A stretch of 64,000 bases of DNA, from positions 17,651-81,650 of the forward strand of contig JBJXFH010000102.1 of assembly GCA_046155365.1 (NCBI GenBank), in the 5' to 3' direction. Under the pieces are notes generated by a model. That model did not search any database. It worked only from the letters and a program-made list of their open reading frames with translations, and had not been told where the DNA came from. A program made the position numbers and the translations under genes. The stretch is from Acidimicrobiales bacterium (GTDB taxonomy: Bacteria; Actinomycetota; Acidimicrobiia; Acidimicrobiales; CAIXPF01). Shown piece by piece: positions 3,915-63,539 of this stretch (position 1 is the first letter of the stretch; every line of letters begins with the position of its first letter).

Positions 3915-4037
3915 ACGGCTTCCCTTCGAAGGTGGGTGTGTGTGAGGGTGACGCCACTGTAGGCGTTGCGCCGTGGCGGCAGCGTTGTGGTCCGCTGGGG
4001 TGGACCGGCACCGGACCGATAACAATGGACCCCTCCC

Positions 4038-8256: not shown

Positions 8257-9084
8257 TCAGCGGAACGTGGGCGTGCGCTTTTCCATGAAGGCGGCCACCG
8301 CTTCGTGGTGCTCGGGAGTGGCGTAGGCCTCGTGCAACGCCGCCATCTCCCGCCGTTGCACCTCGTCGAGGTCCACCCCGGCGCCGTTCACGGTCAGCAG
8401 TTGTTTGATCATGCGCAGCTGGGGATCGGGGTTGGCGGCGTACTCCGCGGCCAGGCCCAGGGCGGTGTCCAGTACCTGATCGGCGGGGCAGGCCCGATCC
8501 ACCAGCCCCATGGCGGCGGCTTCGGCCCCGCTGACCATCCGTCCCGACAGTGCCAGGTCACTGGCGGCACCCCAGCCGCAGCGCTGCACCAGAAAGTGGG
8601 AGCTGGCCAGCTCCGGGACCAGCCCCATCTTCACGAACCGGGCCGAGATCTTGGCATTGTCGGCGGCGATGAGCTGGTCCATGGGCAACGCCAGGGTCAG
8701 CCCCACCCCAATGGCGGCGCCGTTGAGGGCGGCCACCATCGGCTTGGAGGCACGCACCAGGTTCACCCAGTTGACCGCCGGCTCCTGCCCCCCGCCAGCG
8801 TTGCCACCCCGGTCGGTTCCGGCGTCGGCGTCGGCCTCCCGACCGGTCTGAATGCGGGCCTGGAACTGGCTGCCGATGTCCGCCCCGGCGCAGAACCCCC
8901 GCCCGGCCCCGGTGAACACCATGGCCCCCACGGACCGATCAGCGTTGGCCATCGTCACGGCATCGGTCAACTCGCCGTGCATCCGGCGGGTCCAGGCGTT
9001 GAGCTTGTCGGGCCGGTTCAGCGTGATGAGCGCCACGTCACCGCGCTGCTCGTAAAGAATCTCGTCGTAGGACACGGAAGCCAT
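8257..9084 (-). CDS. enoyl-CoA hydratase/isomerase (crotonase) family protein
   Basis: ORF 8257-9129, start taken at MASVSYDEILYEQRGDVALITLNRPDKLNA. Crotonase oxyanion motif GAGRGFCAGADIG. Confidence 0.85.
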   Translation of the reverse strand: MASVSYDEILYEQRGDVALITLNRPDKLNAWTRRMHGELTDAVTMANADRSVGAMVFTGAGRGFCAGADIGSQFQARIQTGREADADAGTDRGGNAGGGQEPAVNWVNLVRASKPMVAALNGAAIGVGLTLALPMDQLIAADNAKISARFVKMGLVPELASSHFLVQRCGWGAASDLALSGRMVSGAEAAAMGLVDRACPADQVLDTALGLAAEYAANPDPQLRMIKQLLTVNGAGVDLDEVQRREMAALHEAYATPEHHEAVAAFMEKRTPTFR

Positions 9085-9116
9085 AGCGGTGACGCTAACC
9101 CAACCCGAACCGGGCG

Positions 9117-25614: not shown

Positions 25615-27795
25615 TCAGGCTCCGTCGGCGGGCGCCGGGCCCAGGTGGCAATAGGCCACCAGCGCAGGCGTGTTGCTCGCCGCAGCAGTGCCGGTCAGTG
25701 CCGTCACGGACGCCCCACCCGCGGTCATCACCGTGACCGGGATCGGGCCGCCACCGGTGGGGTCGGTCGGGATGGGGTTGGTTTCCTGCTCAGCCCAAAG
25801 GCCGGGGCCCACGTTGAGGCAGCCCTTGGGGGCACCGAGGTTCCACAGCCCTTCCCGGTCACCGGGGCCGTAACCGCTGTAGGGCAGGTCGTGCATCACC
25901 CCGTACATCGCTTCATCGGTGGAAGCGACATGGTTGAGACCGATCATGTGGCCCAACTCGTGCAGCAGCAAACCTTCGAGCCCGGTGCCCGACGTTCCCT
26001 GGCTGTAGCCCAAGGTCTCGTTGATGAGCACGAAACCGCTGGCCACGAAGGGATCCTGCCCGTTCCAGGGGGGGTAGTAGCTGCCACCGCCGAGGCCGGC
26101 TACGGCGCCGATACCGGGATACTCCGCCGGTGACACGAAGCTGATGACCGCCTTGGCATCAGCGGGTGGGGTGCCGTTGTTGCCCTCGGTGGTCTCACCC
26201 AACTCCACCAGGTCCAAGCCGGTGGCCGCTTCGACCTTGGCGACGGCCTTGTCCAACTCGCTCCGGGCGAAGCTGGGCGCGCCACTTAGGTTCACCCGAT
26301 AGGTGAGGGTGGCGCAGGGATTCCAGCGGGCGTACCCGCCGCCGCTGAGCTGGTACAGGAACGTGTGGGGCCCGGAGCTGGGCGGACCCGAGGTGCTCAG
26401 CGCCAGCGGTGCCGGTGCGGTTCCGGTGAAGTACCCCGCCACGTCTACGATGAGGTGCGCCCCCGAGGCGGTGTAGAACGAGAAGCCGGTGGTGGATACC
26501 GGTACCACCGCGTGGTTGGGCACGGTCTCCGCGGGCCCGTTGGCGTTGAGGTTGGACGCCAGCGGCTGGCCCAGGCCCCGTCCCCACAGCGTGAAGAAGC
26601 CGGGGCCGGTGGTTTCGGTGGCCGTGGCGTTCACCACCAACGCCGCCACCCCTGACGCCGGAACCGACAGACGGTTAGCGGGGTTGACCTCCACGATCCG
26701 GGCGGCGGTGGGTTTGGCACCCGCCAGCGGGGAGTTCTGCACCGTGCGGGTGTCCAGCAAGCGGCCGGGGCTCACCGGGACGAACAATCCGTCGGTGCCC
26801 ACTGTGGCGTCGGCGCCGGTGAAGGTGCCGCTCAGGTCCACGATCACGTGAGCCGCAATGGCGCTGTAGATCGTCACCCACCCGTCTGTCAGCGGCACGA
26901 TGACCTGGTTGGCGATCACCTGACCGGGTCGATCCACGTTGATCGAGGACACCGCCCCCAACGGCGCGCCCTTCGGCGTGATCGACAAGAAGCCCGCCGC
27001 TTGAGGTTGGTCCACGGTGAGGTTCAGGACCGCCGCCTGGGTGGTCCTGGGCAGGCCCATCATCCCGGCCACGTCGAGATCGAACTGTTCGTTGGCACCG
27101 AGCTGGCCGAAGCGGACCGATCCGGGGGCCCGGGTGTCCATTAGGCGCGTTGGGGCTGAGGCCACGAACCGGCCGGCGGTGGCATCCGCGGCAGGCAGGT
27201 AGTAGCCGGCCACGTCGGCCACCAGATGGGTTCGGCTCTCGGTGTAGATGGCGATCGCGCCGGCGCCGATGGGCACCGTGACCAGGTTGGCAACGGTTTG
27301 ACCGGCGCGGTTGATGTTGGCCGAACTGGCCTCGGGAAACGCACCACCGGCGGGCCACAACGTCACGAAACCGGGTGCTTCGGGCTCGGTGACGGTGAGG
27401 TTCATCACCAGGGCCGTGGCCTCGTTGGGGATGCCGGCCACGCCCGCCACCGGCAGCACGATCATGTCGCCGGCCTTGGGCTTGCCCCACACGCCGATCC
27501 CGTTCCGGCTATCGAGGATCCGGGCCGGGGCCAGGGGCACGAACTTGTTGGTGGCCACCACAGCCTGGCCCCGTACTCCCAACGGTGACGCCACGGGGGT
27601 GACCCCGCTGCCGTTGAGGGGCACCGGGAGGATCGTGCCGGTACGGGTTCCGGTCACGGCGGTGATCGGTGGCGTTGCGCCGAGACCGGGCGGCAGCACC
27701 GTGGCCGGGTTGGACACCACCGGTGACGCTGCTGTGGGGCCGAGCAGAGCGATGAGCAGCACTGCAGCCGCTGAGATGAGCTTCCGAGCTGACAC
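25615..27795 (-). CDS. secreted protein: three ~115-aa internal repeats + C-terminal M10 (matrixin-like) zinc metalloprotease domain
   Basis: ORF 25615-27795 with a signal peptide (LISAAAVLLIALLGPTAA). Three repeats begin FVPLAPARILDSRNG / RFVASAPTRLMDTRAPG / LFVPVSPGRLLDTRT, each ending ...HLVADVAGYY / HVIVDLSGTF / HLIVDVAGYF. The zinc motif is HELGHMIGLNH. Confidence 0.75.
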   Translation of the reverse strand: MSARKLISAAAVLLIALLGPTAASPVVSNPATVLPPGLGATPPITAVTGTRTGTILPVPLNGSGVTPVASPLGVRGQAVVATNKFVPLAPARILDSRNGIGVWGKPKAGDMIVLPVAGVAGIPNEATALVMNLTVTEPEAPGFVTLWPAGGAFPEASSANINRAGQTVANLVTVPIGAGAIAIYTESRTHLVADVAGYYLPAADATAGRFVASAPTRLMDTRAPGSVRFGQLGANEQFDLDVAGMMGLPRTTQAAVLNLTVDQPQAAGFLSITPKGAPLGAVSSINVDRPGQVIANQVIVPLTDGWVTIYSAIAAHVIVDLSGTFTGADATVGTDGLFVPVSPGRLLDTRTVQNSPLAGAKPTAARIVEVNPANRLSVPASGVAALVVNATATETTGPGFFTLWGRGLGQPLASNLNANGPAETVPNHAVVPVSTTGFSFYTASGAHLIVDVAGYFTGTAPAPLALSTSGPPSSGPHTFLYQLSGGGYARWNPCATLTYRVNLSGAPSFARSELDKAVAKVEAATGLDLVELGETTEGNNGTPPADAKAVISFVSPAEYPGIGAVAGLGGGSYYPPWNGQDPFVASGFVLINETLGYSQGTSGTGLEGLLLHELGHMIGLNHVASTDEAMYGVMHDLPYSGYGPGDREGLWNLGAPKGCLNVGPGLWAEQETNPIPTDPTGGGPIPVTVMTAGGASVTALTGTAAASNTPALVAYCHLGPAPADGA

Positions 27796-27970
27796 GTGGG
27801 TTGGGTCGACCCCGCAAGGCCGGCACCGAATGAGCCCATCGGCTCACAACCGTCCCCGGCCCGGCCCGGCGCGTCACGCGGGTCACGACCCGATCGGAGC
27901 CATCGCTTGGCGGCGCCGGTCGGGCTGGCCCTACGCTCCCGCCCGAGTCGAGCTATCGATAGGGGACAAG

Positions 27971-29380
27971 ATGCGAGGCATCATCGCCGCTGGGGGCTAC
28001 GTGCCCTACAACCGCTTGCAGCGGGCCAAGATCGGCCAGACCCTGGGCTCCGGTGGTGGCCGTGGCACCCGGGCCGTGGCTTCCTTTGACGAGGACACCA
28101 CCACCATGGGCGTGGCCGCCGGACGGGTGGCGTTAGCCAACGGTGGCGGCGTGGTCCCCAATGCCGTGTTCTTCGCCACCACCGAACCGGCGTACCTCGA
28201 CAAGAACAACGCCACCACTGTGGCCGCGGCGCTGGATCTGCCGGGCAACACCGGCGCCTTCGACATGACCGGATCAGCCCGATCCGGCATGGGCGCCTGG
28301 GTGGCTGCCGCCAATTACGGCTGGGGTTCGGCGCTGGTGGTCATGGCGGACATGCGCACCGGCCTGGCCGGGAGCGCCGATGAAGCCAATGCCGGTGACG
28401 GCGCCGCCGCCCTGCTGGTGGGCGAGGACAGCGCCGGTCCGGTCATCGCCGAGCTGATCGGTGGTGCCTTCCAAAGCGCGGAGTTCCTGGATCGCTGGCG
28501 TAGCCCGGGAAGCCCCGCGGCCAAGGTGTGGGAGGAGCGATTCGCCGAGCGGGCCTATGACCCCGTCATCAAGGCCGCCATGGCTGATGCCTACGCCATG
28601 TCCGGCATCAGCCCCGAGCAGGTCGACAAGGTGGTCATGACCGGTCTGGCGGCCCGGGCAGTGCGCAGCGCCGCCAAACACGTGGGGGTGGCCCCGGACC
28701 GTTTCGTGGACGGCATGGACGCCACCGTGGGCAACACCGGTGCCGCCCATTTCGGGTTGCTGCTGGTGGGGGCGCTGGAGACGGCCAAGCCCGGTGAGAT
28801 CATCGTGGTCATCAACGCCGCCGACGGATGCGACGTGATGCTGCTGCGGGTGACGGAGGCAATCACCGGCTACCAGGCCTCCCGCCCGGTAGCGACGCAG
28901 GTGGCCCAGGGCAACGACAACATCGACTACGCCAAGTTCCTCACCTGGAAGGGCATGTTGACCAGGGAGCCTCCGCGGCGGCCGGATCCGGACCGCCCCG
29001 GCGCCCCGCCCATGTTCCGGACCGAGAAGTGGAAGTACGCCTTCCACGGTTCCAAGGATCGCTCCACCGGCATGATCCATCTGCCGCCGCAACGGGTGTC
29101 GATTCGAGGTGGGGCGGTGGACGACATGGAAGATGTGGCACTGGCCGATGTACCCGGCACCATCACCACGTTCACGATTGACCGGCTGGCGTTCTCGATG
29201 TCCCCGCCGCTGGTGGCCGCGGTGGTGGACTTCGACGGGGGCGGTCGATACCCGTTGGAGATGACCGACATGGACCCCTCCGAGGTCAAGATCGGGATGC
29301 GGGTTGAGATGACGTTCCGCCGGCTCTACACCGCCGACGGGATCCACAACTACTTCTGGAAGGCCCGCCCAGTTCGCTGA
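27971..29380 (+). CDS. HMG-CoA synthase-like (thiolase-fold) domain fused to a DUF35-like OB-fold domain
   Basis: Inner part of ORF 27311-29380; ATG 27971 (MRGIIAAGGYVPYNRL). HMGCS-like motifs SFDEDTTTMGV and VGNTGAAH. The C-terminal ~125 aa (from ~29003) resemble DUF35 (LPPQRV..., ...TFTIDR..., IGMRVEMTF). The nucleophile Cys position reads FDMTGSARSG. Confidence 0.75.
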   Translation: MRGIIAAGGYVPYNRLQRAKIGQTLGSGGGRGTRAVASFDEDTTTMGVAAGRVALANGGGVVPNAVFFATTEPAYLDKNNATTVAAALDLPGNTGAFDMTGSARSGMGAWVAAANYGWGSALVVMADMRTGLAGSADEANAGDGAAALLVGEDSAGPVIAELIGGAFQSAEFLDRWRSPGSPAAKVWEERFAERAYDPVIKAAMADAYAMSGISPEQVDKVVMTGLAARAVRSAAKHVGVAPDRFVDGMDATVGNTGAAHFGLLLVGALETAKPGEIIVVINAADGCDVMLLRVTEAITGYQASRPVATQVAQGNDNIDYAKFLTWKGMLTREPPRRPDPDRPGAPPMFRTEKWKYAFHGSKDRSTGMIHLPPQRVSIRGGAVDDMEDVALADVPGTITTFTIDRLAFSMSPPLVAAVVDFDGGGRYPLEMTDMDPSEVKIGMRVEMTFRRLYTADGIHNYFWKARPVR

Positions 29381-39468: not shown

Positions 39469-42400
39469 TCAGCGCCAGCCGAGGGTTTCCAGCCGGGAGC
39501 GGGCTCGTCCGAAGTCGAAGCGGTGGGCCAACTGATGTGCCTGGCCCAACAGCGCGGCGGCCTCGTCGGATCGGCCCTCACCGGCCCCGGACAGAAACTC
39601 GCCGTAGGCCAGGGCCGCCTGTACCGTCCACAGCGGGCTGCCGGATCGTTGCGCCAGTTTCAGGCAACGTTGAAAGCACGCTTCGGCCAGGGCGACGTCG
39701 CCGGTCCGCGCCGCCAGCGCGCCCCGGAAGCGATCAGCGGGACCGATGCAGCCGTTCAGCGAGCCCACCATGATGCAGATGTCCGCCCACGGCTCGAGCA
39801 TCTGCAGCAGGGCGTCCGCCTGCGCCGGGGTGCCCACAACCGAGGCGGCGTCCGCCAGCAGGCTCAGCGACGCTCCCCGCAGGCTGTCGTCCCCGACCGC
39901 GACCATCCCCGGTCCCACCGCTCGTGGTCCCACCACCCGGTCGAGCACTGCCCGCGCCTCATCATGCAGGCCAAGCTCCGCGCACACCGCAGCCAGGCCC
40001 GGTTGCCAGGCGGCTCCAACGACTCCAAGACGCGCCGCCAGCCGGACCGCGGCTGCGACCTCCTGCAGGCGGCCCTGCTCGCGGCGCAGCAGGAACATCT
40101 GCAGGCCGTAGATCCCTTCGACGTCGAAGCCGGTCATGGAGGCGGCCACCTGGCGGCCACGTTCGTAGCAGGCCTCGGCCCGGGCGAAGTCACCTTCCGC
40201 CATGTGCACCATGGCCCAACAATTGGACAACTCGACCTCGTAGAACCGGTAGTGCAGGGCAATTCGTTCAAACGTTGCCAGCCGCCCTTTCGCCGCCGTC
40301 AGATTCCCTTGTTCGAGGTCCACCCGCATCTGCAAACCGGAAATGGGCGCAAACGGGTCCATCGCCGCGGTGTTGGTCTCCATCTCCACCGCCCGTCGCA
40401 GCGCCCGGTGACAGATCGAGCGATCTTGAGGCCGGAAATACACGTGGAAATGGGTGCTCAGGGCCATCAGCTCGGCTGCCTCGTCCCCGCATCGCCGGGC
40501 CATTTCCTCGGCCTGCACGATCACCGGCCCGGCCCGCTCGTGCTGCGCTGTTGGGCTCAGGGAACGGGCGAGTTCGGTAGCCACCAGTGAGCGCTCGGCG
40601 CTGTCCCCCGGGGGTAGGTGGGCCAGCACCCGTTCCAAGAGCGCCACGACAGCGTCACCGGAGCGGCCCATCCAGGCCGACATCTTGCTGTATTGGATGA
40701 CCGCGGGAACCGCCAGGTCGGGCCATCCGCCGGCGTCGGCCAACTCCAGCGTCTCGGTGAGGCGCTCGAAACCGCCGCTCAGATCGGTGGTGCGGACCCG
40801 GGCCTCTCCCTCGCCCAGCGCCGCCTCCACATACGCTCGGGTATGGGACAACCCGGTTTGGCTCAGCAGTCGGCGGGCTTCGCTGAAATGCGCAACCGCC
40901 GACTCATGATCGAACTGGTAGCGGGCCTGGCGGCCGGCACGTTGGAGCGCATCGGCGGTGCGCTGGGGGTCTGCGCCCACCGCCAGCGCCTCCACCAGGT
41001 GATGGGCCAAGGCCTCGGCCACCGCGTCCAACCCCAACCTGTGCACGACCTCGATGGCGTCGGCCAAGTGCAGGTGCGCCGCCGCCACCGCGGTGACGCC
41101 GGCCTCGGCGAGCAGCGCCTGGCGCACCAGCACATGGCCGAAACGGAAGCGACCCACGCCCAGCTCGCCGATCAAGCCGGCTCGCCGCAATTCCTGTACC
41201 GGATCCAGGAGGGTGACCACTGGCCGGCCCAGGGCGCCGGCCACTATTGCCAGCTCCCACTCGGTACCGGACACCGCGGCCATTGACAGCAACGCCCGGG
41301 CTTGCGATGACAACGCTCGGGTGCGTCGTCGAACGGCGGCACCGATGTCCGCCCCCGAACCGGACAACAGGGTCAAGAACAACGGGTTGCCGCCCGTCTG
41401 ATCGAAAAGCTCCAAGGCGGCGGCCTCATCGGCGCCGACCAACTCCCCGATGGCGTCGGTACCGAGACCATGCAATTCCACGCCAAGGGTGCTGGCCCGC
41501 ACCAGCAACTCGTCGTGGAGGCCCTGCACCGCCGCGCCATACGCTTCGGTACTGCGGGAGGTGAACACCAGCGCCAGGCGGGCCGAGGGCACCGTGTCGA
41601 CCACAAAACGCAGGAGTTGGACGGTGCTGGCGTTGGCCCAATGCACGTCGTCGATCACCAACATCACCGGCCGCGTACCGCTGAGCATGTCGAGCCACGA
41701 GACCACGGCGTCGAACAACCGCGGCTGGTCCGCGCCGGGGGCGGGGGTCACCTCGCCGGCGTCGGCCAGCGCCGTGATGGCCGGGGCCAAGCGGGCCAAC
41801 ATCGTGGGATCTGCTCCCATGGTGGCGATATCGGGAGCGATGGCGACGAACTGACGCAGTGCCTCGGCGATGGGTTGAAAGGGATACGCCATGTCCTCAT
41901 CGCAGCGACCGAACAGCACCAGCGCCCCGCCGGCCGCGGCCCGGTCGGCAACGGCGGCCGCGGTTCGGGTCTTGCCGATTCCCGCTTCGCCGTTTATCCA
42001 CAGCACCTTGAGCCGTTCGATGTTTCCGAGATGGTCCACGGCGCGTTGCAATACGTCCTGCCGACCAACAAAGCGAGCCTCGTTGGCCAGGCTTAGGGCC
42101 GCGGGCAAAGACAGGGTGCCAGCATGGGTTGCCAACGGGGGATCCCAACACACCTCCCAGGCCAGCATCGGCTCGGGCAGACCCCGCAACTCCAGCAACC
42201 CTCGCTCGAGGAAACGATGTGAGCCCCGCCCGCGGGCCAGCACCCGGACCAGATCGGCGCACAGGATGGTCCCGCCCTCCGCCAACGCCTCGAGTCGGGC
42301 TGCCTCCACCACCGGGGCACCGAAACAGTCACCGTCCTCCCAGGACACGTCGCCGACCGATAACCCCATCCGCACCGCCAGCTCGGCCCCCGCTGGTGCG

Positions 42401-42699
42401 GTCTGGTTGTACCGCCACAATGCCTGTTGTGCGGTTACCGCGGCGTTGAGCGCATCGGTCGCCGAAGCGAACGCAGCCATGACGCCATCGCCGCTGCCTT
42501 TGACCACCACCCCCCGCTGGGCGTGCACCTCAGCGGTGAGTAGCTGGTCGTGCTGGCGGCGTAGCTGGTCTGCGGCTTCCTCGCCCAAGGCAGCCCGCAT
42601 GGCGGTGGAGCCCACCAGATCGGTGAACAGGATGATGGCCAGCGCCGGCCCCTCCGGTGGCACCAAGAAGGGCACACCCCCAGCACTTGCCATTCGCAC
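39469..42699 (-). CDS. class III nucleotidyl-cyclase-like domain / P-loop (AAA_16, STAND-like) NTPase / TPR-like repeat protein
   Basis: ORF 39469-42699 (1076 aa). Cyclase motifs ILFTDLVGSTAM, KGSGDGVMAAF and DCFGAPVVEAARLE. Walker A GEAGIGKT (about 41968-41991), Walker B VMLVIDDVHWAN, and a long helical repeat C-terminus. No HTH seen. Confidence 0.85.
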   Translation of the reverse strand: MRMASAGGVPFLVPPEGPALAIILFTDLVGSTAMRAALGEEAADQLRRQHDQLLTAEVHAQRGVVVKGSGDGVMAAFASATDALNAAVTAQQALWRYNQTAPAGAELAVRMGLSVGDVSWEDGDCFGAPVVEAARLEALAEGGTILCADLVRVLARGRGSHRFLERGLLELRGLPEPMLAWEVCWDPPLATHAGTLSLPAALSLANEARFVGRQDVLQRAVDHLGNIERLKVLWINGEAGIGKTRTAAAVADRAAAGGALVLFGRCDEDMAYPFQPIAEALRQFVAIAPDIATMGADPTMLARLAPAITALADAGEVTPAPGADQPRLFDAVVSWLDMLSGTRPVMLVIDDVHWANASTVQLLRFVVDTVPSARLALVFTSRSTEAYGAAVQGLHDELLVRASTLGVELHGLGTDAIGELVGADEAAALELFDQTGGNPLFLTLLSGSGADIGAAVRRRTRALSSQARALLSMAAVSGTEWELAIVAGALGRPVVTLLDPVQELRRAGLIGELGVGRFRFGHVLVRQALLAEAGVTAVAAAHLHLADAIEVVHRLGLDAVAEALAHHLVEALAVGADPQRTADALQRAGRQARYQFDHESAVAHFSEARRLLSQTGLSHTRAYVEAALGEGEARVRTTDLSGGFERLTETLELADAGGWPDLAVPAVIQYSKMSAWMGRSGDAVVALLERVLAHLPPGDSAERSLVATELARSLSPTAQHERAGPVIVQAEEMARRCGDEAAELMALSTHFHVYFRPQDRSICHRALRRAVEMETNTAAMDPFAPISGLQMRVDLEQGNLTAAKGRLATFERIALHYRFYEVELSNCWAMVHMAEGDFARAEACYERGRQVAASMTGFDVEGIYGLQMFLLRREQGRLQEVAAAVRLAARLGVVGAAWQPGLAAVCAELGLHDEARAVLDRVVGPRAVGPGMVAVGDDSLRGASLSLLADAASVVGTPAQADALLQMLEPWADICIMVGSLNGCIGPADRFRGALAARTGDVALAEACFQRCLKLAQRSGSPLWTVQAALAYGEFLSGAGEGRSDEAAALLGQAHQLAHRFDFGRARSRLETLGWR

Positions 42700-42800
42700 C
42701 CCCCAGCGACCACCTGAGCTCCCGGCCCCCCGACCTTCGCAGCGTAGCTTCGCCCCTGAATTTGAGCTCGACTGCTGCCGGTCAGCGTTAAGCTCATCGC

Positions 42801-45800
42801 GTGGGGGAGGTCACACGGACCACAGCAACGGTGCTGGTGACCGATCTCGTCGCGTCCACCGCACTGCGGGTTCGCCTGGGTGAGGAGGCGGCTGACGCGC
42901 TGCGTCGCAGCCACGATCGCCTGCTGGGTGAGGCGGTGGAGGCCGCCGGCGGCGTGGTGGTCAAAGGCAGTGGTGACGGCATCTTGGCCCGGTTCCAATC
43001 CGCCGCGGACGGACTCGACGCCGCGGTGGCCGCTCAACGGTCTTTGGCCAACTTCAGCCGGTCCCGTCCCCCCAGCGAGCAGTTGCATATTCGCATCGGG
43101 CTCTCGGTGGGAGACGTGAGCCTGGAAGCTGGCGACTGCTTCGGCACCCCGGTGGTGGAAGCGGCCCGGCTGGAGGCGGCTGCTTCGGGCGGCCAGATCC
43201 TCTGCACTGAGCTGGTGCAGCTGATGGCCCGGGGCCGGGGTCGCCACACGATCACAGCGATGGGTTTCTTGGACTTGAAGGGGTTACCGGATCCCGTGGC
43301 GGTTTGTGAGGTCTCCTGGCAAACCCCCGACCATACCGAGCACTACGAGCTCCCGCCTGAGGTTCGCATCGAAGCCGCCAAATCCTTTGCCGGCCGCACC
43401 GAGGCCCTGAGGGAGGGCTTGGCCTTTATCGGAGATCGGTCCCGAGCACGGCTGGGCGTGATCTGGTTGGCGGGGGAGCCGGGCATCGGCAAGACCCGCT
43501 TGGCGGCGGAGATCGCGGCGAGGGCTCATGAGGGCGGTGCTCGGGTGTTGTTCGGTCGGTGTAACGAGGATCTCCATGTCGCCTACCAGCCGTTCATGGA
43601 AGCGCTGCGGGCCTTCAGCGAGGAGGTGCCCGATGACCTCCTGCCGGCCGCCCTGGGCGAAGGCGCAGGGAGATTGTCATTGTTGGCGCCGGAACTGGGG
43701 ACCCGCCATCCACAACTGGTTGCGCCCGCACGCGGCGATCCTGATACCGATCAGTATGAACTGTTCGAGGCGGTGCGACGCTGGCTGGCCGTCGCCAGTG
43801 CCGACCATCCCTTGATCGTGGTGATCGATGACGTGCAGTGGGCGTCGCCCCCGACGCGGGCGCTGTTGGAGCACGTGGCTCGCAGCGCCGCCGCCTCGGG
43901 AGCGGTTCTGCTGTGCACCGCCCGCAATACCGCCCCTGATGACAGTGAAGCTACCCGGGCCTTGCTCGAGGGGTTACGCCGGCGAGGCTTGCTGCTGATG
44001 CGAACCCTGGGTGGGCTCGAACCGGCCGACGTGGCAGCGCTGGTGGGGGGCGATGAGCTGGCCAGGGAACTGCACGCGCAGACCGAGGGCCATCCACTCT
44101 TTCTGGAAGCGATCCGGGCCGGCGGGAGTGACGTGACCAATACTGTGCAGCGCCGGTTGGCCACCTTGAGCGAATCAACCCGAGACCTGCTCGGCGTGGC
44201 GGCGCTCTCGGGGCTGAGCTTCGAGCTGTCGGTGGTGGCCCGGGCCGCGGCGCTGGACCACCCATCTGCCCTGGCCGCGGTGGAAACGGCCCTGGCCTGT
44301 GGTTTGCTCCAAGAAATTGGCGCAAATAACTTTCTGTTCAGTCACGCGCTGTTCCGTTCGACACTGATTGACACCATGTCCCGTACCCGTCGGGCTTCTC
44401 TGCACGCCGCGCTCTCCCGGGCGCTGGAAGCAGAATTGGACGATGACGGTGAGGAGATGGGCCGCGCCGCCCAGATCCTCCACCATGAGCTCAGCGCCGG
44501 ACCGGCCGGTATGGCGGATCGGATCGAGCGCTTTGGCCGGGCCGCAGCCATCTCGGCGCTGAAGGTGTTCGCCTTCGATGAAGCGGCTCGCCACTTCGGC
44601 GTCCTGGTCGCCACCAGTACCGATCCGGCGGTACAGCTGCAGGCTCGGCTCGACCAGGCTGCGGCGCTGCTTCGGGACCCGGACTTCGTAGCGGCGCAGC
44701 AGGTCTTCGGCGAGGCCGCCCACCAAGCGGCACAGTTGGGTGACGTCGGTGCCGAGGTGACCGCGTCGCTGGGTTTCGAGGATGCCGGCTGGCGTCCGGG
44801 ACTGCCGGGCGCGTCAGCGGTGGAGGTCATTGATGCCGCGTTGACCCACCACGTGCAACTTTCGGAGGCCACGTTGGTGCGGCTGCAGGCCAGCAAGGCC
44901 CGGGCGCTGGTGTTCATGGGCCGTGGTGCGCAGGCCGCAGCCCTTGCCGACGCAGCTCTGGATCGAGCTCGCCGTTGTGGTGACCCGGCGGCGCTGGCCC
45001 ATGCCCTGTTGTGCCGGATCATGGTGTTCGGCCATGGACCCGAGATCGAACAGGTGGAGGTGCTGGGCTCGGAGTTGGCGCAGCTGGCCCATGACCTCGG
45101 TGATGACGAGCTGGCCACCCACGGCGCGGATTTCAGCATGGCCGCCATTCACCGCCATAGCGCGGTGGAATTCGATCGGGCCGTGGCCCGGTTGGCATCA
45201 ATGGCGGAGCGCCGCCGCGATGTTGTGTATCAACACCATATCGTGACGTCCTTTAACATCTTTCAGGCGTTTCGCGACGGGCAGCTGGCCCGGGTCGAGG
45301 AACTCATCAGTTTCGCTGCGGACCCTGATCGATCCAGTTGGCAGGAGCCTGCTGGCCTGTACGGGCTGCGGATGTTCTTGCTGCGCCGGGAACAGTGCTG
45401 TCTGGCGGAGGTTGCGCCCAGCCTGGATCTGATGACTCGGCTGCAGCCTGACGCCGCGCTGTGGGCGCCCGGCTTCGCCCTGCTGTGTGCCGAGCTGGGT
45501 CGAATCCCCCAGGCCCGCGCCGTGTTGCGCGCGCTGGCGGCGGGCGGGTTCGCCGCGGTGGCCCATGACGGGAACCGGCTCACCAACATTCTTTTCCTGG
45601 CCGAGACCTGTTGGCTGCTGGGCGCGGTGGATGAAGCCGAGTGGGCGATTAAGCATCTGAAGCACTATCGGGGTCAAATCCCGATGGTGTGGGGGTCGGG
45701 TCTGCTGCTGGGCCCCGCGGACCGCCAGCTGGGTCTGCTCTATGTGCTGCGGGGAGATCGGGTACTGGGCGTGGAGCTGCTGGAGCAAGCGGTCGAGCTC

Positions 45801-45962
45801 AGCACCCATATCGGCTCGGTGTTGTGGCGGGCCCGCAGCCTGTGCGATCTGGGCCACGTGGCGGGACGAACGGCGGCGCTCACTGAGGCCCTGGAACTGG
45901 CCAGGGCGCATGATCTTCCGGCGGTGAGGCGGTTGGCGGCGGATCGGCTGGCAGCTCGATGA
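42801..45962 (+). CDS. class III nucleotidyl-cyclase-like domain / P-loop (AAA_16, STAND-like) NTPase / TPR-like repeat protein (paralog)
   Basis: ORF 42801-45962 (1053 aa, GTG start). Motifs VLVTDLVASTAL, KGSGDGILARF and DCFGTPVVEAARLE (43143-43175). Walker A GEPGIGKT, Walker B LIVVIDDVQWAS, and a helical repeat C-terminus. It is divergent from its paralog across a 101-bp spacer. Confidence 0.85.
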   Translation: MGEVTRTTATVLVTDLVASTALRVRLGEEAADALRRSHDRLLGEAVEAAGGVVVKGSGDGILARFQSAADGLDAAVAAQRSLANFSRSRPPSEQLHIRIGLSVGDVSLEAGDCFGTPVVEAARLEAAASGGQILCTELVQLMARGRGRHTITAMGFLDLKGLPDPVAVCEVSWQTPDHTEHYELPPEVRIEAAKSFAGRTEALREGLAFIGDRSRARLGVIWLAGEPGIGKTRLAAEIAARAHEGGARVLFGRCNEDLHVAYQPFMEALRAFSEEVPDDLLPAALGEGAGRLSLLAPELGTRHPQLVAPARGDPDTDQYELFEAVRRWLAVASADHPLIVVIDDVQWASPPTRALLEHVARSAAASGAVLLCTARNTAPDDSEATRALLEGLRRRGLLLMRTLGGLEPADVAALVGGDELARELHAQTEGHPLFLEAIRAGGSDVTNTVQRRLATLSESTRDLLGVAALSGLSFELSVVARAAALDHPSALAAVETALACGLLQEIGANNFLFSHALFRSTLIDTMSRTRRASLHAALSRALEAELDDDGEEMGRAAQILHHELSAGPAGMADRIERFGRAAAISALKVFAFDEAARHFGVLVATSTDPAVQLQARLDQAAALLRDPDFVAAQQVFGEAAHQAAQLGDVGAEVTASLGFEDAGWRPGLPGASAVEVIDAALTHHVQLSEATLVRLQASKARALVFMGRGAQAAALADAALDRARRCGDPAALAHALLCRIMVFGHGPEIEQVEVLGSELAQLAHDLGDDELATHGADFSMAAIHRHSAVEFDRAVARLASMAERRRDVVYQHHIVTSFNIFQAFRDGQLARVEELISFAADPDRSSWQEPAGLYGLRMFLLRREQCCLAEVAPSLDLMTRLQPDAALWAPGFALLCAELGRIPQARAVLRALAAGGFAAVAHDGNRLTNILFLAETCWLLGAVDEAEWAIKHLKHYRGQIPMVWGSGLLLGPADRQLGLLYVLRGDRVLGVELLEQAVELSTHIGSVLWRARSLCDLGHVAGRTAALTEALELARAHDLPAVRRLAADRLAAR

Positions 45963-55882: not shown

Positions 55883-55956
55883 GGGGGTGTAGCTCAGTTG
55901 GCTAGAGCGCTACGTTCGCAACGTAGAAGTCGGCGGTTCGAATCCGCTCACCTCCA
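55883..55956 (+). tRNA. tRNA-Ala (anticodon CGC)
   Basis: Folded by hand. Acceptor GGGGGTG/CACCTCC includes the G3:U70 wobble pair that is the Ala identity element. D arm GCTC-AGTTGGCTA-GAGC. Anticodon stem CTACG/CGTAG with loop TTCGCAA (anticodon CGC at 55917-55919). T arm GGCGG-TTCGAAT-CCGCT. Discriminator A; CC follows but CCA is not fully encoded. Confidence 0.9.
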
Positions 55957-57090
55957 CCGGCAAACTCCAGGTCAGACCCCGTCTCAGCGGCGGGGTCTGC
56001 GTCGTTTTGGCCTGCAGCGAGGCGACGGACCCGATTTGGACCCGATGCCCGCAACGCCCGGTCCAACAGGTCCGCCGCGCCCTCGTCGACCTCCGGCAAC
56101 ACCGACCCGTACACGTCCATCGTCGTGCGGATCGACGCGTGCCCCAGGCGGACCTGGATGACCTTGGCGTGCGCCCCCTCAGCGATGAGCAGACTGGCCG
56201 CGGTGTGGCGCAGCTGGTGGATCGTCAACCTGTCCAACCCCGCCCGGCGCACCGCCGGCTGCCACACCCTCGGGCGGAACTGCGACGCCCGCATCGAGCC
56301 GCCGCCCGGGGGCCTGCACCACATAGTCCTCGGGGTCCATGCGCCCGGTCCGTTGGAGGTGCGCCGCCAGCTCGTCGACCACGAACCCCGGGACCGACAT
56401 CGTCCGGCGGCTCGCGCGGGTCTTCACGTCTGAATCCTCGAGCAGCCGGCCCTCCACCTCGGCCACCGTCGCCGTCACGATCAACGACCGGCGCAGGAAA
56501 TTGATCCGACCGACCTTCAACCCGGCGATCCCCGACAGACGCAAACCGAGCACCCCACCCAGCCACATCACCGGCCGGTAGTCCACCGGCATGGCTTCGG
56601 CCAGGCGCAGCAGCTGCTCGATGTCCAGGAACTGCTGCTCTTTCGGGCGGAGCTTCGGCAGGCGGATACCACGGCATGGGGACATGGTCAGCTTCCCGCC
56701 TTCCACGGCCGCCCCGAACACCGCACGGACGACGCCAGGTTTCGTGGACACCGTCTTCGGTGCCAGCTTCGCGGCCATCTTGTCCACCACCCGGCGCACA
56801 TCGAGCGGGGTGATCTTCCCGAGCGGCATCCGCCCGAGCGCCGGGACCCACCACCCCTTCAGCACGTTGCGGTCCCGGGCCTCTGTGGTGGGCCGCTTCG
56901 TGACCGCCTCGAAGTACTCCTCGCACCAACCAGCGAAGGTCATCCGCTGCAACGCGTTGCGCACGACGCCCGCCCCCCGTGGCTCACCGGCTCGCCTGAC
57001 GCACCGCCCGTGCACGGTGCTCGGTTCGAATTGAGACTGTTCTGATCGCTCGTTGCCCTGGGCATCGGACGAGGGGAGCTGCCCACCCAT
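55902..57090 (-). pseudogene. tyrosine-recombinase (phage-type) integrase, disrupted by a frameshift
   Basis: Two overlapping minus-strand ORFs. 56179-57090 holds the N-terminal SAM-like/core-binding part and the start of the catalytic domain (...LRLSGIAGLKVGRINFL...DYVVQAP). 55902-56324 holds the rest (GGGSMRASQFRPRVWQPAVRRAGL, HQLRHTAASLL, RLGHASIRTTMDVYGSV with catalytic Tyr). The frames join at the C5G5 run cccggggg near 56306-56316. The downstream frame has no stop until 55902, inside the tRNA. Confidence 0.8.
55973..56008 (+). terminator. intrinsic-terminator-like hairpin downstream of tRNA-Ala
   Basis: Perfect 9-bp arms cagaccccg (55973-55981) and cggggtctg (55991-55999) with a 9-nt loop, followed by cgtcgTTTT (T-run 56005-56008). 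Confidence 0.6.
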
Positions 57091-59239: not shown

Positions 59240-62125
59240 CTACAGGCTGGTGAGTGCATCGATCGCGGCGTCGACGGCGTCGAGCAGTTCGCTGGAATGC
59301 TCGGCCGCGTGGCCGTCCAGGGTCCCATGCCAACCATCGCCGTAAAGGCGGTCGAGCTCTCGGTTCAAGCCGAGCGAGCTTCTCCCGACGTGCGCGCCGG
59401 ACCGCCTGGCGAGCGCGAGTCCCTCTTCGGCGCGGCCGGCGTGCGCCAGGCAAACGGCTGCGGCCCAAAGGCCCATTCGTGCCCCTTGACGGAACCGTTG
59501 GGAGCGGCTGCGCTCGAGAACCTCGACGGTCGCAGCAACGGCGATATGCCGCTCGCTGCCCAGCACGAGGGCGGCCATGCGATAGCCGAGCGGGGCGATA
59601 GCGATCCAGCCCACGACCGGCAGGGGTTCCAGCACGTCGACGGCGCGTTCCGTGAGCTCAATCGCGTCGCTTGGACGGTCGACGCCGACGATCTGTGCTT
59701 TGAGCACCAGCACGTAGCTGAGCAGCGTCGGTGCACGCGACCGCACCGCCAACTTCAACGCCCGCTCGCACCATTCGGCAGCATCGACCCTCGGGTCTTG
59801 CAACCAAAGCGCGTAGTAGGAGCGAACCGCTGGCGCGAGGACCATCGAGTCTGCGTCTTCGCCCGGCTGTTCAGACCAGGCGCGGGAGATCTCGTTCGCC
59901 AGTACGCCGCCGCCGACGGCCTGGGCACGCATGAACGCGGCGAGATGGAACGGCGCGTTCCCAGCAGCGTCGCGAAGCCGCGACCAGTCTCCGACCGCTC
60001 GGCCGGTCTCGGCAAGATCGCCCAAGATCCAGTAGGCGTGGATCCCCCAAGCTCCTCTGGCGGCCGCCTCGGAAGGGTGGCCATTGAGAATGCCGGCCTC
60101 GACTGCGTCGCGCGCCCAGACACCGAGTTCGCTGTTCCCGGCGAAAAGGCCGTAGAACGCGAGCGCCTTGCACAATCGGCCGATCAGCTCGCAGTCTTTG
60201 GTCTGCACGGCGGTCTGAAAGGCGAGGCGGGTGTTCGGCCAGTTCTCGGTGATCGCGGCCCACGCGTGCGGTTCGTCGGCGCTCCAGGTCTGTCGTCGCG
60301 CTGCTTCCGCGACCGTCGTGAAGTGTGCGGCGTGCGCCCAACGGCGTTGATCGGTCTCTTGGCGCCCGTCGAGTTGTTCGGCTGCGAACTGGCGCAGTGT
60401 CTCCAGCATCGCGAACCGCGGGGCGCCACCGGAGTCGACCCGCACCAGCATCGCCTTATTGATCAGAGCGGTGACCAACTCCGCCGCCCGTGCTAGGTCG
60501 CCGTCGAGACCGCCAACCACGGCGATCGATGCAAGGTCGAAGCTGCTCACGAAGACCGATGCCGCGTCGAACAGCGCCCGTTCCGATGGGGTGAGCAAGT
60601 CGTAGGACCATCCCATCGCTCGACGGAGGGAGCGGTGCCGCTCGGGACGATCGCGGCCGGACGACACGTCGAGCAGCTCAGCGCTGGTGAGCTGCTGTGC
60701 GACCGCGGTCGCCCCGAACGCTCGTACCCGCGAGGCCGCAAGTTCAATGGCGAGCGGCAGGCCATCGAGTCGAGCGCAGAGCTCACCGATCACTGCACGT
60801 TCGTCATCCGACGCTTGGAATGTCACATCCGCCGCGTGGGCCCGTGCGCAGAACAACTCGACCCCTTCAGTTCGAGCGTCGAGCGGTTCGACCGGCCAGA
60901 CTTGCTCGATAGCCAGTCCGAGAGGCGCACGGCTGGTGGCGACGATCGCGATCCTTCGTGTTCCGCGTATCAGCCGATCGATGAGCGCCGCCGCAGCGTC
61001 GATCACGTGCTCGCAGTTGTCGATCACGAGCAGTATCGATTGATCCAGCAGCGCCTGAGCGAGAGCGTCCTGCGGTGCGACGTCGGCCAGCTCGCTGACA
61101 CCGAGCATGGCGGCGACGACCGCTGCGAGGCCCGCCGGGTTGCTGAGCGTAGAAAGATCAACGAAGTGACAGCCGTCTGGGAACCTCGCCGTAGCCCGGG
61201 CCAGTAGTTCGTCGGCTAGGCGTGTCTTGCCGATCCCACCTGGGCCCACCAACGTGATCAGCCGTAGGACGCTCAGCGCCGCGCTCAGCGAATCCAACGA
61301 AGCTGCCCGTCCGATCAAGCCCGTCGAGCCGGACCGTTGATGACTAAGGCTCAAGGGCGTAACTCGGGGTTCGACGACCCCGAGCACGGCGGTGTCCTGC
61401 GCAAGGACCGCCGCCTCAACACGGCGCAGCTCCGCGGACGGCTCGACCCCGAGCTCCTCGACCATGAGCGCTCGAGCGCGTTGATACGCGTCAAGCGCAT
61501 CGGCCTGACGGCCCGCGCGCCAATACGCCGTCATCAACATCGCCCAAAGCCGCTCGCGTAACGGCCAGAGAGCAGTCAACGACAGCAGCTCTGCGATCAG
61601 TTCGGGGAGGCGGCCGCCCAATGCCAACCATGCCTCAGCCCGCCCGGCCAACAGATCGCCGCGCAGCTCTTCCAGGCGGGTTTGCTCAACGGAGAGCTCT
61701 TCAAGCTCGACGAGCTCTCCATAGGGGCGACCCCGCCAGAGCAGCAGAGCGGACTCCGCCAGACGACATGCCTCCACCGGATGGATAGCCAACACTGAAC
61801 TCGCTTGCCCGGCAAGAGCCTCGAACCGAGCGACGTCGAGATCCAACGCATCCACGACCAGCCGATACGCACCCGGCCTGGTCTCCAGCGTTGCGCAACC
61901 CGACAACATCTCCCGCAGCCGATGGACCTCACTTCGCAACGCCCGCCTCGCGCTGCTCGGTTCCAGGTTTGTCCACAGACGATCGATGAGCAGATCAACC
62001 GACACGTCAGTGTCCCGCCGAGCTACCAGCACGCCCAACAGGCTCTGGCGACGGACACCGGCCACCGTGCGGGGCACCCCGCTGACGACCACCTCCGGAG
62101 TGCCCAACACCAACAGCCGGCCCAT
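59240..62125 (-). CDS. SARP (AfsR/DnrI/RedD-type) regulator: OmpR-like winged helix + BTAD + NB-ARC-like P-loop NTPase + TPR-like C-terminus
   Basis: ORF 59240-62125 (961 aa). The N-terminal wHTH has LLGVLVARRDTDVSVDLLIDRLW. BTAD region: DLDVARFEAL...LLWRGRPYGEL...ERLWAMLMTAYWRAGRQADALDAYQRARALMVEELGVEPSAELR. Walker A VGPGGIGKTRLA, Walker B LLVIDNCEHV, and helical repeats to the end. Confidence 0.85.
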   Translation of the reverse strand: MGRLLVLGTPEVVVSGVPRTVAGVRRQSLLGVLVARRDTDVSVDLLIDRLWTNLEPSSARRALRSEVHRLREMLSGCATLETRPGAYRLVVDALDLDVARFEALAGQASSVLAIHPVEACRLAESALLLWRGRPYGELVELEELSVEQTRLEELRGDLLAGRAEAWLALGGRLPELIAELLSLTALWPLRERLWAMLMTAYWRAGRQADALDAYQRARALMVEELGVEPSAELRRVEAAVLAQDTAVLGVVEPRVTPLSLSHQRSGSTGLIGRAASLDSLSAALSVLRLITLVGPGGIGKTRLADELLARATARFPDGCHFVDLSTLSNPAGLAAVVAAMLGVSELADVAPQDALAQALLDQSILLVIDNCEHVIDAAAALIDRLIRGTRRIAIVATSRAPLGLAIEQVWPVEPLDARTEGVELFCARAHAADVTFQASDDERAVIGELCARLDGLPLAIELAASRVRAFGATAVAQQLTSAELLDVSSGRDRPERHRSLRRAMGWSYDLLTPSERALFDAASVFVSSFDLASIAVVGGLDGDLARAAELVTALINKAMLVRVDSGGAPRFAMLETLRQFAAEQLDGRQETDQRRWAHAAHFTTVAEAARRQTWSADEPHAWAAITENWPNTRLAFQTAVQTKDCELIGRLCKALAFYGLFAGNSELGVWARDAVEAGILNGHPSEAAARGAWGIHAYWILGDLAETGRAVGDWSRLRDAAGNAPFHLAAFMRAQAVGGGVLANEISRAWSEQPGEDADSMVLAPAVRSYYALWLQDPRVDAAEWCERALKLAVRSRAPTLLSYVLVLKAQIVGVDRPSDAIELTERAVDVLEPLPVVGWIAIAPLGYRMAALVLGSERHIAVAATVEVLERSRSQRFRQGARMGLWAAAVCLAHAGRAEEGLALARRSGAHVGRSSLGLNRELDRLYGDGWHGTLDGHAAEHSSELLDAVDAAIDALTSL

Positions 62126-62369: not shown

Positions 62370-63539
62370 CTAGAACGCAGGGCTCAATGGGTCGCCGCCG
62401 GCGAGCACGCGGGCCACGTCGCGTTGAACGCCGCGAAGGGACTCCGTCGAGGCGGCGGCAGCGTGGATGTCTCGCAGCGCCCGTTCGACCCGATTGCGAG
62501 TCCGATAGGCCCCATGAGTCGCTATCGAATACAGGTTCGACACCTGATGGCGCGTGCTGTCTGAAATATGGAACATCGCCCCAAAGCCACGCGCCCGCGT
62601 TGACAGCGGCACCTCTCCCTGCTCTGCAGCCGACCACAGTTCGTCAGCGATGGCGAACCAGCTGGAGCGCATCGCGTCGAGCGCCGCTTCCGCCTCGGCG
62701 ATCACTTGCTGGAAGCGTGGCTGATCCGCATGGCGGCCGCCGTGCAGGTCCGACACCGCCTCGCCGGCCAGCTCCCACACCCCGTCGATCGCGGTGCGCA
62801 ACACCCCGAGCTGCAGAGATGCCATCATCCCGCCGAACCCCAACGGCCGCGAAATGTTGTTCATCGGACGGTCGATCAACGGTGGAGCCGTCCACCCGAC
62901 CACAAACTGGTTCGCAACGTATACGTCTTCGACCCGAACAGGGTTGCTGCCGGTGCCGCGCATGGCACTCGAGGCAGACCACGTGTGCTCAATCTGAACG
63001 TCGGAACTCGGCACGACGAACACCCGCGCTGCGCCAGAGCCATACTGCGCCGCGGAGCCAGTGCCATCGTCGATCAACCCGCTCAACACGAGCCAACGAG
63101 CATGGTCAGACCCGGTCACGAAGGGCCATCGGCCTCGAAGGCGGAACCCGCCATCGACGGCAAGCGCCCGACCTACCGGTACGGCGCCGTTCCCGTAGGG
63201 ATAGCTGGGATCCGCGTACACCTGCGCACGAACCGTCGCATCGAGTCGCACCGACAGAAGCCCAGCTATACCCGAGTTCGCGACGTGCCACGCGACCGTC
63301 GGATCTGCCTCCGACAGCAACTCGACAGTCCGCCAAAGATCAGGAAGCGTGAGATCCATCCCGCCGCATTCGGCCGGTGCGACTGCGGCAAACAGCCTTG
63401 CCTCGCCCAGAGCGTCGCGCGCGTCGTCATGCATGCGGGCATCACGCTCAGCATCGTCCCGATGCGCGGCAACGACCTCATGGACCGCTCGAGCTGCCGT
63501 GACCCCCGGTTCCTCGCTGACAGCCGCTGTTATCGCCAT
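62370..63539 (-). CDS. acyl-CoA dehydrogenase-fold protein (possibly flavin-dependent monooxygenase type)
   Basis: ORF 62370-63539. It shows ACAD N-terminal, middle and C-terminal domain patterns (LFAAVAPAECGGMDL, GAVPVGRALAVDGGFRLRGRWPFVTGS, RDIHAAAAS). I could not confirm a clear catalytic Glu by eye. Confidence 0.8.
   Translation of the reverse strand: MAITAAVSEEPGVTAARAVHEVVAAHRDDAERDARMHDDARDALGEARLFAAVAPAECGGMDLTLPDLWRTVELLSEADPTVAWHVANSGIAGLLSVRLDATVRAQVYADPSYPYGNGAVPVGRALAVDGGFRLRGRWPFVTGSDHARWLVLSGLIDDGTGSAAQYGSGAARVFVVPSSDVQIEHTWSASSAMRGTGSNPVRVEDVYVANQFVVGWTAPPLIDRPMNNISRPLGFGGMMASLQLGVLRTAIDGVWELAGEAVSDLHGGRHADQPRFQQVIAEAEAALDAMRSSWFAIADELWSAAEQGEVPLSTRARGFGAMFHISDSTRHQVSNLYSIATHGAYRTRNRVERALRDIHAAAASTESLRGVQRDVARVLAGGDPLSPAF

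Follow-up and report, generated by a model that had tools for sequence, protein, structure and literature searches.

In a 64,000-nucleotide stretch of the genome of an uncultured Acidimicrobiales bacterium (contig JBJXFH010000102.1 of assembly GCA_046155365.1; this whole stretch is hereafter called the window), two divergently oriented genes, A and B, code for proteins in which an N-terminal nucleotidyl cyclase domain of class III is followed by the nucleotide-binding oligomerisation domain (NOD) of a STAND-type NTPase and by a long helical sensor resembling tetratricopeptide repeats (TPRs). Taking the evidence together, the reading which we prefer, with a probability of roughly 0.55, is that A and B would act as ligand-gated, oligomerisation-activated adenylyl cyclases in ordinary signalling and not in defence. 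Both are new members of a very large, already annotated actinobacterial family of signalling proteins, which at 50% identity resolves into 3,951 clusters if E ≤ 1e-30 is required and into 33,114 at E ≤ 1e-10, and whose members are named 'class 3 adenylate cyclase/TPR repeat protein' by JGI.

With respect to the genes themselves, the initial annotation had described two long open reading frames (ORFs) of 1076 and 1053 aa diverging from a short spacer, and these coordinates and reading frames are borne out (Table 1), with zero internal stops on translation of either ORF. NCBI places the start of A at the GTG at 42675, eight codons later, which gives a protein of 1068 aa (P0001) and a spacer of 125 bp; no sigma-70-like site, notable repeat or operator was found in the spacer. 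In the public records both proteins are called 'MAG: ATP-binding protein [Acidimicrobiales bacterium]' (MAG, metagenome-assembled genome) and lie on one 150-kb contig, and the G + C content of the window is about 68-70%. A BLASTP alignment of A with B spans 1065 columns at 35% identity (E 1e-134), so that their paralogy, which had also been proposed, is far beyond chance and extends over the full length of one shared architecture. All motifs on which that proposal rested were recovered, i.e., LFTDLVGST/LVTDLVAST, KGSGDGVMA/KGSGDGILA, GEAGIGKT/GEPGIGKT, LVIDDVHWA/VVIDDVQWA and DCFG(A/T)PVVEAAR.

Table 1. Coordinates of genes A and B and their modules in the window, and of two kinds of recurrent neighbouring genes at the loci of relatives
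Feature	Sequence	Position	Strand	Remarks
Gene A, cyclase-STAND-TPR protein	window	39469..42699	-	1076 aa counted from first GTG
Gene B, cyclase-STAND-TPR paralogue	window	42801..45962	+	1053 aa, P0041
Divergent intergenic spacer	window	42700..42800	.	101 bp
A, nucleotidyl cyclase domain of class III, residues 17-185	window	42145..42651	-	sequence search, conservation, AlphaFold2, Foldseek
A, motif DCFGAPVVEAAR, residues 124-135	window	42295..42330	-	Val131 in place of canonical Asn; P129 and E132 are clade signatures
A, STAND NOD (NBD-HD-WHD), residues 200-533	window	41101..42102	-	Pfam, alignment, model, Foldseek match to 6mfv
A, all-helical arm and TPR-like sensor, residues 534-1076	window	39472..41100	-	most divergent module
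B, class III cyclase domain, residues about 5-173	window	42813..43319	+	59% identity to that of A
B, motif DCFGTPVVEAAR, residues 112-123	window	43134..43169	+	Val at Asn position
B, STAND NOD, residues about 187-526	window	43359..44378	+	GEPGIGKT, VVIDDVQWA, GHP, FSH
B, helical/TPR sensor, residues about 527-1053	window	44379..45959	+	24.5% identity to sensor of A
SCO4226-like gene	L004	847-1134
SCO4226-like gene	L055	4528-4785
SCO4226-like gene	L056	9707-9964
SCO4226-like gene	L057	9641-9928
SCO4226-like gene	L014	36-278
SCO4226-like gene	P0121 contig
Acyl-CoA dehydrogenase gene	L002	4074-5279
Acyl-CoA dehydrogenase gene	L003	8558-11100
Acyl-CoA dehydrogenase gene	L004	5906-7090
Acyl-CoA dehydrogenase gene	L055	8168-9331
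Acyl-CoA dehydrogenase gene	L057	19838-21007

Pfam profiles, a structure model and structural comparison agree on the order of a cyclase-like domain, a P-loop NTPase and helical or TPR repeats that had been deduced from the sequence. Pfam finds AAA_16 in both proteins (E 4e-21 for A and 2e-22 for B) and TPR families at both C-termini (TPR_12 at residues 992-1057 of A), and the Guanylate_cyc profile (PF00211) scores 23.0 bits in A and 20.8 bits in B against a gathering cut-off of 21.9 bits, a borderline result that accounts for the uninformative NCBI name. In a sequence search of the Protein Data Bank (PDB), the N-terminal 190 residues of A match solved class III cyclases, namely 3mr7 (E 3e-24), Ma1120 (E 2e-21), Rv1900c/LipJ (E 4e-16) and CyaC. 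An AlphaFold2 model of full-length A, built with 98 homologues, has a mean predicted local distance difference test score (pLDDT) of 92.8 and a predicted template-modelling (TM) score of 0.84; it consists of a beta/alpha cyclase domain, a nucleotide-binding domain (NBD) with helical (HD) and winged-helix (WHD) domains from about residue 200 onwards, and an all-helical remainder, with a linker of low confidence at residues 191-194 (pLDDT below 50). The helical part had been put at about 700 aa, but after the winged-helix domain it comprises only about 540 aa. When the model was compared with the PDB by Foldseek, the best match was 6mfv, i.e., the STAND protein PH0952 with its TPR sensor (E 3.5e-13), followed by Ma1120, Rv1900c and 3mr7 (TM 0.82-0.95, or 0.70-0.95 if CyaC is included); the match to Ma1120 has a TM score of 0.91-0.95, a root-mean-square deviation of 1.3-2.3 Å and about 36% identity, and Avs3, SAMD9 and Apaf-1 are weak, partial matches only.

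The residues expected of both enzymatic modules are present. The cyclase domain of A has D27 and D71 as metal ligands, K67 and D124 as the adenine-specifying pair and R135, with V131 at the position of the canonical Asn, and judged from structure and profile evidence the N-termini of A and B are cyclase domains with a complete metal and substrate site. The NOD of A carries the P-loop GEAGIGKT, the Walker B motif VIDD (D350, D351), R382, GNP (437-439) and the winged-helix His522. Among these STAND signatures, G237, G240, G242, K243, T244, D351, R382, G437 and H522 are invariant in the 98-sequence alignment, and D350, N438 and P439 are conserved in at least 90% of the sequences.

The lack of an output helix-turn-helix (HTH) domain, which had been pointed out in the initial annotation, is likewise upheld, as neither GerE nor any other HTH family was found by Pfam in A or B. 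The LuxR-bearing homologue P0050 (1163 aa) aligns to residues 19-1034 of A and then has about 110 extra residues including GerE; A continues for about 40 residues past the aligned region, and these are helical TPR according to the model and Pfam. A cryptic C-terminal HTH was rejected on the grounds of the Pfam result and of this alignment.

The most conspicuous feature of both cyclase domains is the replacement of the transition-state Asn by Val with retention of the Arg, which was confirmed by HMMER alignments to 3mr7, where GDIFGDAVNVAARLEA stands over GDCFGAPVVEAARLEA of A, and to Ma1120, where K67, D124, V131 and R135 of A are in register with K101, D157, A164 and R168. In Ma1120, A164 occupies the canonical Asn position, and K101/D157 and R168 are substrate and transition-state residues (PMC4215837). 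Far from being an oddity of this pair, the substitution marks a clade of thousands of proteins. Among 188 cyclase-bearing homologues drawn from two database searches, Val is found at this position in 142, Ile in 41, Asn in three and Ala in one; 106 out of 122 further representatives of 50%-identity clusters have Val or Ile and nine have Asn, and the LuxR-bearing members of the family show the same pattern. The canonical A-V-N is kept, in turn, in more distant cyclase-AAA_16 proteins, which come from two genomes of Mycobacterium and one MAG of Acidobacteria.

The other canonical residues are kept in 92-99% of the 188 homologues (D27 in 173, K67 in 174, D71 in 181, D124 in 186 and R135 in 187), and two further residues are characteristic of the clade (P129 in 181 and E132 in 179). 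Because P129 and E132 are conserved together with the change to Val or Ile, a co-adapted site rather than drift is suggested; no published description of this P-V-[V/I]-E signature was found. In addition, no module of the protein is better conserved than the cyclase domain: comparison of A with B gives 59% identity for the cyclase domain, 40% for the NBD, 39% for HD-WHD and 24.5% for the sensor, and the corresponding family means are 54.7%, 47.1%, 40.8% and 30.1%.

The loss of the Asn had been taken as a pointer to a pseudo-cyclase or an unusual product. However, Ma1120, which ranks among the nearest characterised relatives, lacks the canonical Asn and is an active adenylyl cyclase with a Vmax of 166 nmol cyclic AMP (cAMP)/min/mg and minor formation of cyclic GMP (cGMP), and its catalytic efficiency is lowered about ten-fold when the Asn is restored by the exchange A164N (PMC4215837). 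An Asn-Arg pair is therefore typical of, but not obligatory for, class III cyclases. A domain without catalysis that would serve the STAND oligomer as a nucleotide- or metal-binding or dimerisation module, e.g., in ATP sensing or as an adaptor, is thus rather unlikely. It would be in line with the absence of the Asn from A, B and about 97% of their close homologues, with the Pfam cyclase score at or below the threshold, and with the inactive cyclic nucleoside monophosphate (cNMP) cyclase domains known from other multidomain conflict proteins (PMC7159879), but a plain dimerisation module would not need the metal-binding Asp, the Lys/Asp pair and the Arg. Since these residues are conserved, the cyclase is the best-conserved module and Ma1120 is active without the Asn, a decayed pseudo-enzyme is unlikely. 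We therefore favour the view, drawn from sequence comparisons, that the combination of Val or Ile in place of the Asn with Pro129 and Glu132 represents a clade-wide active-site variant and not decay, and from the Lys/Asp pair we infer ATP as the predicted substrate and cAMP as the predicted product.

For class III cyclases, activity depends on dimerisation, as the active sites are situated at the dimer interface (see also PMC5699072). In STAND proteins such as MalT and PH0952, multimerisation is driven by an inducer and autoinhibition is exerted by the TPR sensor (PMC6468293). By analogy, the N-terminal cyclase domain of A and B would be the output module, connected via a flexible linker of about 15-25 aa to a NOD of the MalT/AfsR type. 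At rest, the protein would be a monomer whose ADP-bound NOD is kept shut by sensor and arm. Binding of a putative ligand to the sensor and exchange of ADP for ATP would then open the NOD and drive multimerisation, which would bring the tethered cyclase domains together and, as class III active sites form at the dimer interface, would switch on cAMP synthesis. Finally, the cAMP would be sensed by CRP-type proteins or by further cNMP-binding ones whose genes lie elsewhere. As the two sensors are only 24.5% identical, A and B most likely report different inputs.

Several observations weigh against this scheme. The Pfam cyclase score reaches the threshold only, and in mammalian cyclases the Asn does matter for catalysis (reference 33 in PMC4215837). 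Val is, moreover, bulkier than the Ala of Ma1120, and the activity of A and B could accordingly be low or altered. In the literature searched, neither an enzyme assay or other experimental study of the HTH-less Val/Ile clade nor a demonstrated case of a STAND NOD activating a cyclase by oligomerisation was found, and there is no cNMP-binding gene among the scanned genes of the window.

The genomic context of A and B is one of housekeeping and core metabolism. On one flank there are genes for DXP synthase, thiolase, 3-hydroxyacyl-CoA dehydrogenase, a PAP2 protein, an LPG-synthase-like protein, a thioesterase and two TldD/PmbA proteins, and on the other flank those for Ldh_2, OmpA, PHP, SAF, PNP, a nucleotidyltransferase and MoeA/MoaA/MoaC. 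In keeping with the earlier statement that no cNMP-activated effector gene is adjacent, the immediate neighbours are the TldD/PmbA pair, Ldh_2 and OmpA. PADLOC reports weak matches to PycC over the first half of the cyclase domain only (E 6e-8 to 7e-5), which are explained by the shared class III fold, and none of its Avs, bNACHT or NLR models is matched by A or B. None of 50,697 phage records gave a match; matches on plasmids are distant ones, at 24-34% identity, that lie on megaplasmids or chromids of rhizobia or the Burkholderia group and are annotated as 'adenylate/guanylate cyclase domain-containing protein'.

These findings do not favour the speculation, put forward in the initial annotation, that A and B are defence proteins of the NLR, Avs or Pycsar type. 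According to that idea, the TPR part would sense a protein of a phage or of another invader, upon which the STAND module would oligomerise, and a cNMP alarm would be sent to a distant effector as in Pycsar. The layout of an enzymatic domain, a STAND module and a repeat sensor is indeed that of Avs and NLR proteins, to which the weak Foldseek matches to Avs3, Apaf-1 and SAMD9 and the PycC matches may be added; the sensors diverge fast and paralogues occur in arrays, a gene with weak similarity to AbiEi_4 separates two paralogues at one locus, and in a 2026 preprint (10.64898/2026.08.12.744502) cNMP cyclases with a fused STAND NTPase are predicted to make up an 'immune clade 1'. The STANDs of that clade are, however, of the NACHT and AP-ATPase types, whereas A and B have a NOD of the AAA_16/MalT-AfsR type, whose nearest relatives without a cyclase domain are SARP transcription regulators, i.e., a class that was placed among the non-immune STANDs in a survey in Nature in 2026. 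In view of this kinship with SARP and LuxR regulators, the metabolic flanks without a cNMP-binding toxin, the lack of phage matches and the nature of the recurrent neighbours of relatives (see below), an immune role is improbable. Equally improbable is a broader proposal, in which the thousands of proteins of the P-V-[V/I]-E clade would form a distinct catalytic variant gated by STAND oligomerisation and devoted to NLR-like surveillance, a possibly non-canonical cyclic-nucleotide alarm being sent to effectors elsewhere and paralogues such as A and B constituting a receptor repertoire with different specificities.

At the loci of relatives, other genes recur. A SCO4226-like gene (PF14026, 85-95 aa) lies directly beside cyclase-STAND or NOD-sensor genes at at least six independent loci (Table 1), including one in a Burkholderiaceae MAG, and its product may be a partner or co-regulated; none was found in the present window (tblastn, E < 1e-3). 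Acyl-CoA dehydrogenase genes are situated within or beside the arrays of paralogues (Table 1), which may point to a connection with the metabolism of lipids or acyl-CoA, although those of L003 and L055 are 84% identical and part of the recurrence is thus shared synteny. LAL-type AAA_16-GerE regulators and stand-alone cyclase genes recur as well. At L056, a CRP-family gene (cNMP_binding and HTH_Crp_2; 8938-9627) is located two genes upstream of the homologue P0018, and this is the only direct hint from any neighbourhood of a cAMP read-out.

Concerning the relation between A and B, the closest relatives of A are P0002 (60% identity) and P0003 (56%). P0002 is preceded by a stand-alone cyclase gene and followed by genes for an acyl-CoA dehydrogenase and a NOD-sensor protein without cyclase domain, and P0003 stands in tandem with another family copy, which is 38% identical to B. 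The closest relative of B among 5.8 billion proteins, P0009, reaches no more than 46% identity, and A ranks only about 60th among the homologues of B; the two are old paralogues and not a co-inherited pair. For the same reason, a recent tandem duplication was rejected as the origin of the pair. In relatives, family members recur in clusters, each with two to five copies, whose arrangement may be tandem, divergent or broken up by other genes (L001, L002, L003, L004, L008, L010, L055 and L057).

These arrangements bear on the suggestion that A and B form a hetero-oligomeric system conserved as a unit, in which both proteins would be co-expressed from a shared divergent promoter region and would assemble into a mixed STAND ring or a heterodimeric cyclase. 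Mammalian C1/C2 cyclases show complementary degeneracy between the partners, which is the mark of obligate heterodimers. No such asymmetry exists here, because A and B carry an identical and complete catalytic set. An obligate pair is accordingly hard to credit: the head-to-head placement with a spacer of only 101-125 bp, the complete and compatible cyclase domains and the adjoining paralogues of many relatives would be expected of it, but the pair is not conserved, the neighbours of the orthologues of A are not orthologues of B and differ in orientation, and no sign of co-evolution is apparent. Most likely, the head-to-head placement reflects a habit of this family to form local clusters of paralogues and not an obligate two-part system.

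Two observations from the clusters of relatives may be added. At L001, a 331-aa gene (3731-4726, minus strand) with a weak AbiEi_4 match lies between P0038 and P0009, two divergent paralogues of the family. At L003 (11122-11661), L004 (1160-1876) and L055 (9403-9939), full-length members are adjoined by stand-alone cyclase genes of 178-238 aa with the same P-V-V-E motif, an arrangement reminiscent of mycobacterial Rv1359/Rv0891c.

The least probable alternative, an active cyclase whose helix Pro129-Val-Val/Ile-Glu132 re-shapes the handling of the ribose so that the product is not 3',5'-cAMP, might draw on the conserved Pro and Glu and on the canonical A-V-N of distant relatives, but the adenine-specifying Lys and Asp are retained by 174 and 186 of the 188 homologues, respectively, and Ma1120 makes cAMP with minor cGMP despite its missing Asn.

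Further features of the window lie at some distance from A and B. A third STAND gene (59240-62125, minus strand, 961 aa; SARP/BTAD and NB-ARC/AAA_16) looks like an AfsR-type regulator; kinship to A and B was rejected, as the similarity is confined to the P-loop. The adjacent gene at 62370-63539 (minus strand) codes for an acyl-CoA dehydrogenase that belongs, like those beside the cyclase-STAND arrays of relatives, to the Acyl-CoA_dh_2 type. A tRNA-Ala gene (55883-55958, plus strand) is overlapped by two tyrosine-integrase ORF fragments (55902-56324 and 56179-57090, minus strand), and past 54 kb the G + C content drops from about 0.69 to 0.65-0.66. The region, which lies some 10 kb away from B and seems to have no relation to it, probably represents an integrated element whose integrase is disrupted. 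Finally, two long ORFs with high G + C content at third codon positions, 25615-27795 (minus strand) and 27311-29380 (plus strand), run on opposite strands and share about 480 bp, so that at least one start codon or a whole ORF call must be wrong; a weak matrixin match was obtained for one of them, and matches to the ChsH2 OB-fold and ACP_syn_III_C for the other.

In practice the finding is an ordinary one, given that cyclase-AAA_16-TPR proteins are abundant and annotated by domain, and that an active cyclase without the Asn is already on record. Of use, nonetheless, are the recognition of a cyclase domain in proteins which NCBI names only 'ATP-binding protein', and the delineation of a large coherent clade by the exchange of Asn for Val or Ile together with the conserved Pro and Glu, which would make it a good system for studying class III catalysis without Asn. 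In addition, proteins of the A/B type would offer a clean test of whether STAND multimerisation activates an enzyme by forced dimerisation of its catalytic domains. Should the minority reading of an immune role prove true, they would amount to a large group of NLR-like sensors in bacteria, so far unrecognised, whose output is a second messenger.

Compared with known systems, the cyclase domains of A and B share the fold, the Lys/Asp pair, the Arg and the lack of the Asn with Ma1120 of Mycobacterium avium (PDB 4wp3, 4wp8 and 5d0e). Ma1120 is, however, essentially a stand-alone catalytic domain without STAND or sensor, has Ala and not Val or Ile at the Asn position, and is devoid of the Pro/Glu signature (GRNVAMAAR versus GAPVVEAAR). 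Pycsar PycC is also a class III-fold cyclase, but A and B have no adjacent effector and their substrate residues are of the purine (ATP) type. With respect to the mycobacterial Mclx proteins Rv0386, Rv1358 and Rv2488c, the order of cyclase and ATPase is shared with A and B and the C-terminal LuxR HTH is theirs only. Rv0386 reportedly has Gln/Asn in place of the Lys/Asp pair (Castro et al., 2005), whereas in A and B Lys/Asp is retained and it is the Asn that differs. In the published description of the Mclx proteins, an N-terminal cyclase homology domain precedes an AAA/NB-ARC-type ATPase and the LuxR HTH, with TPRs in Rv0386 (PMC4452763).

As to published surveys, the word 'cyclase' does not occur in the main text of the Nature 2026 STAND survey, a paper on conflict systems (eLife 2020) describes cNMP cyclases in vWA-MoxR and other systems and not in a cyclase-STAND-TPR architecture, and no characterised cyclase-AAA-TPR protein was found in the rhizobial literature. 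The annotation names of cyclase-AAA_16-repeat homologues rest on domain matches and not on experiments. A cyclase-AAA_16-repeat core is common to A, B and TIGR03903, the 'TOMM system kinase/cyclase fusion protein' (61-70 bits over residues 94-614 of A and 28-599 of B), yet TIGR03903 proteins carry an extra N-terminal kinase and A and B fall far below the cut-off of 705 bits.

PH0952 is the best structural match to the NOD-arm-sensor part of A, but differs from A and B by an identity of only about 15%, an HTH effector and shorter sensors. Over NOD and sensor (residues 169-1050), B is 37% identical to P0168, a SARP-family (AfsR-like) protein, and both the AfsR-like SARP-NOD-TPR regulators and the LAL regulators (AAA_16-LuxR) are homologous to A and B throughout these modules and possess the same STAND motifs. 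The difference lies in the output, which in these regulators is a DNA-binding domain, either an N-terminal SARP or a C-terminal LuxR domain, and in A and B a cyclase.

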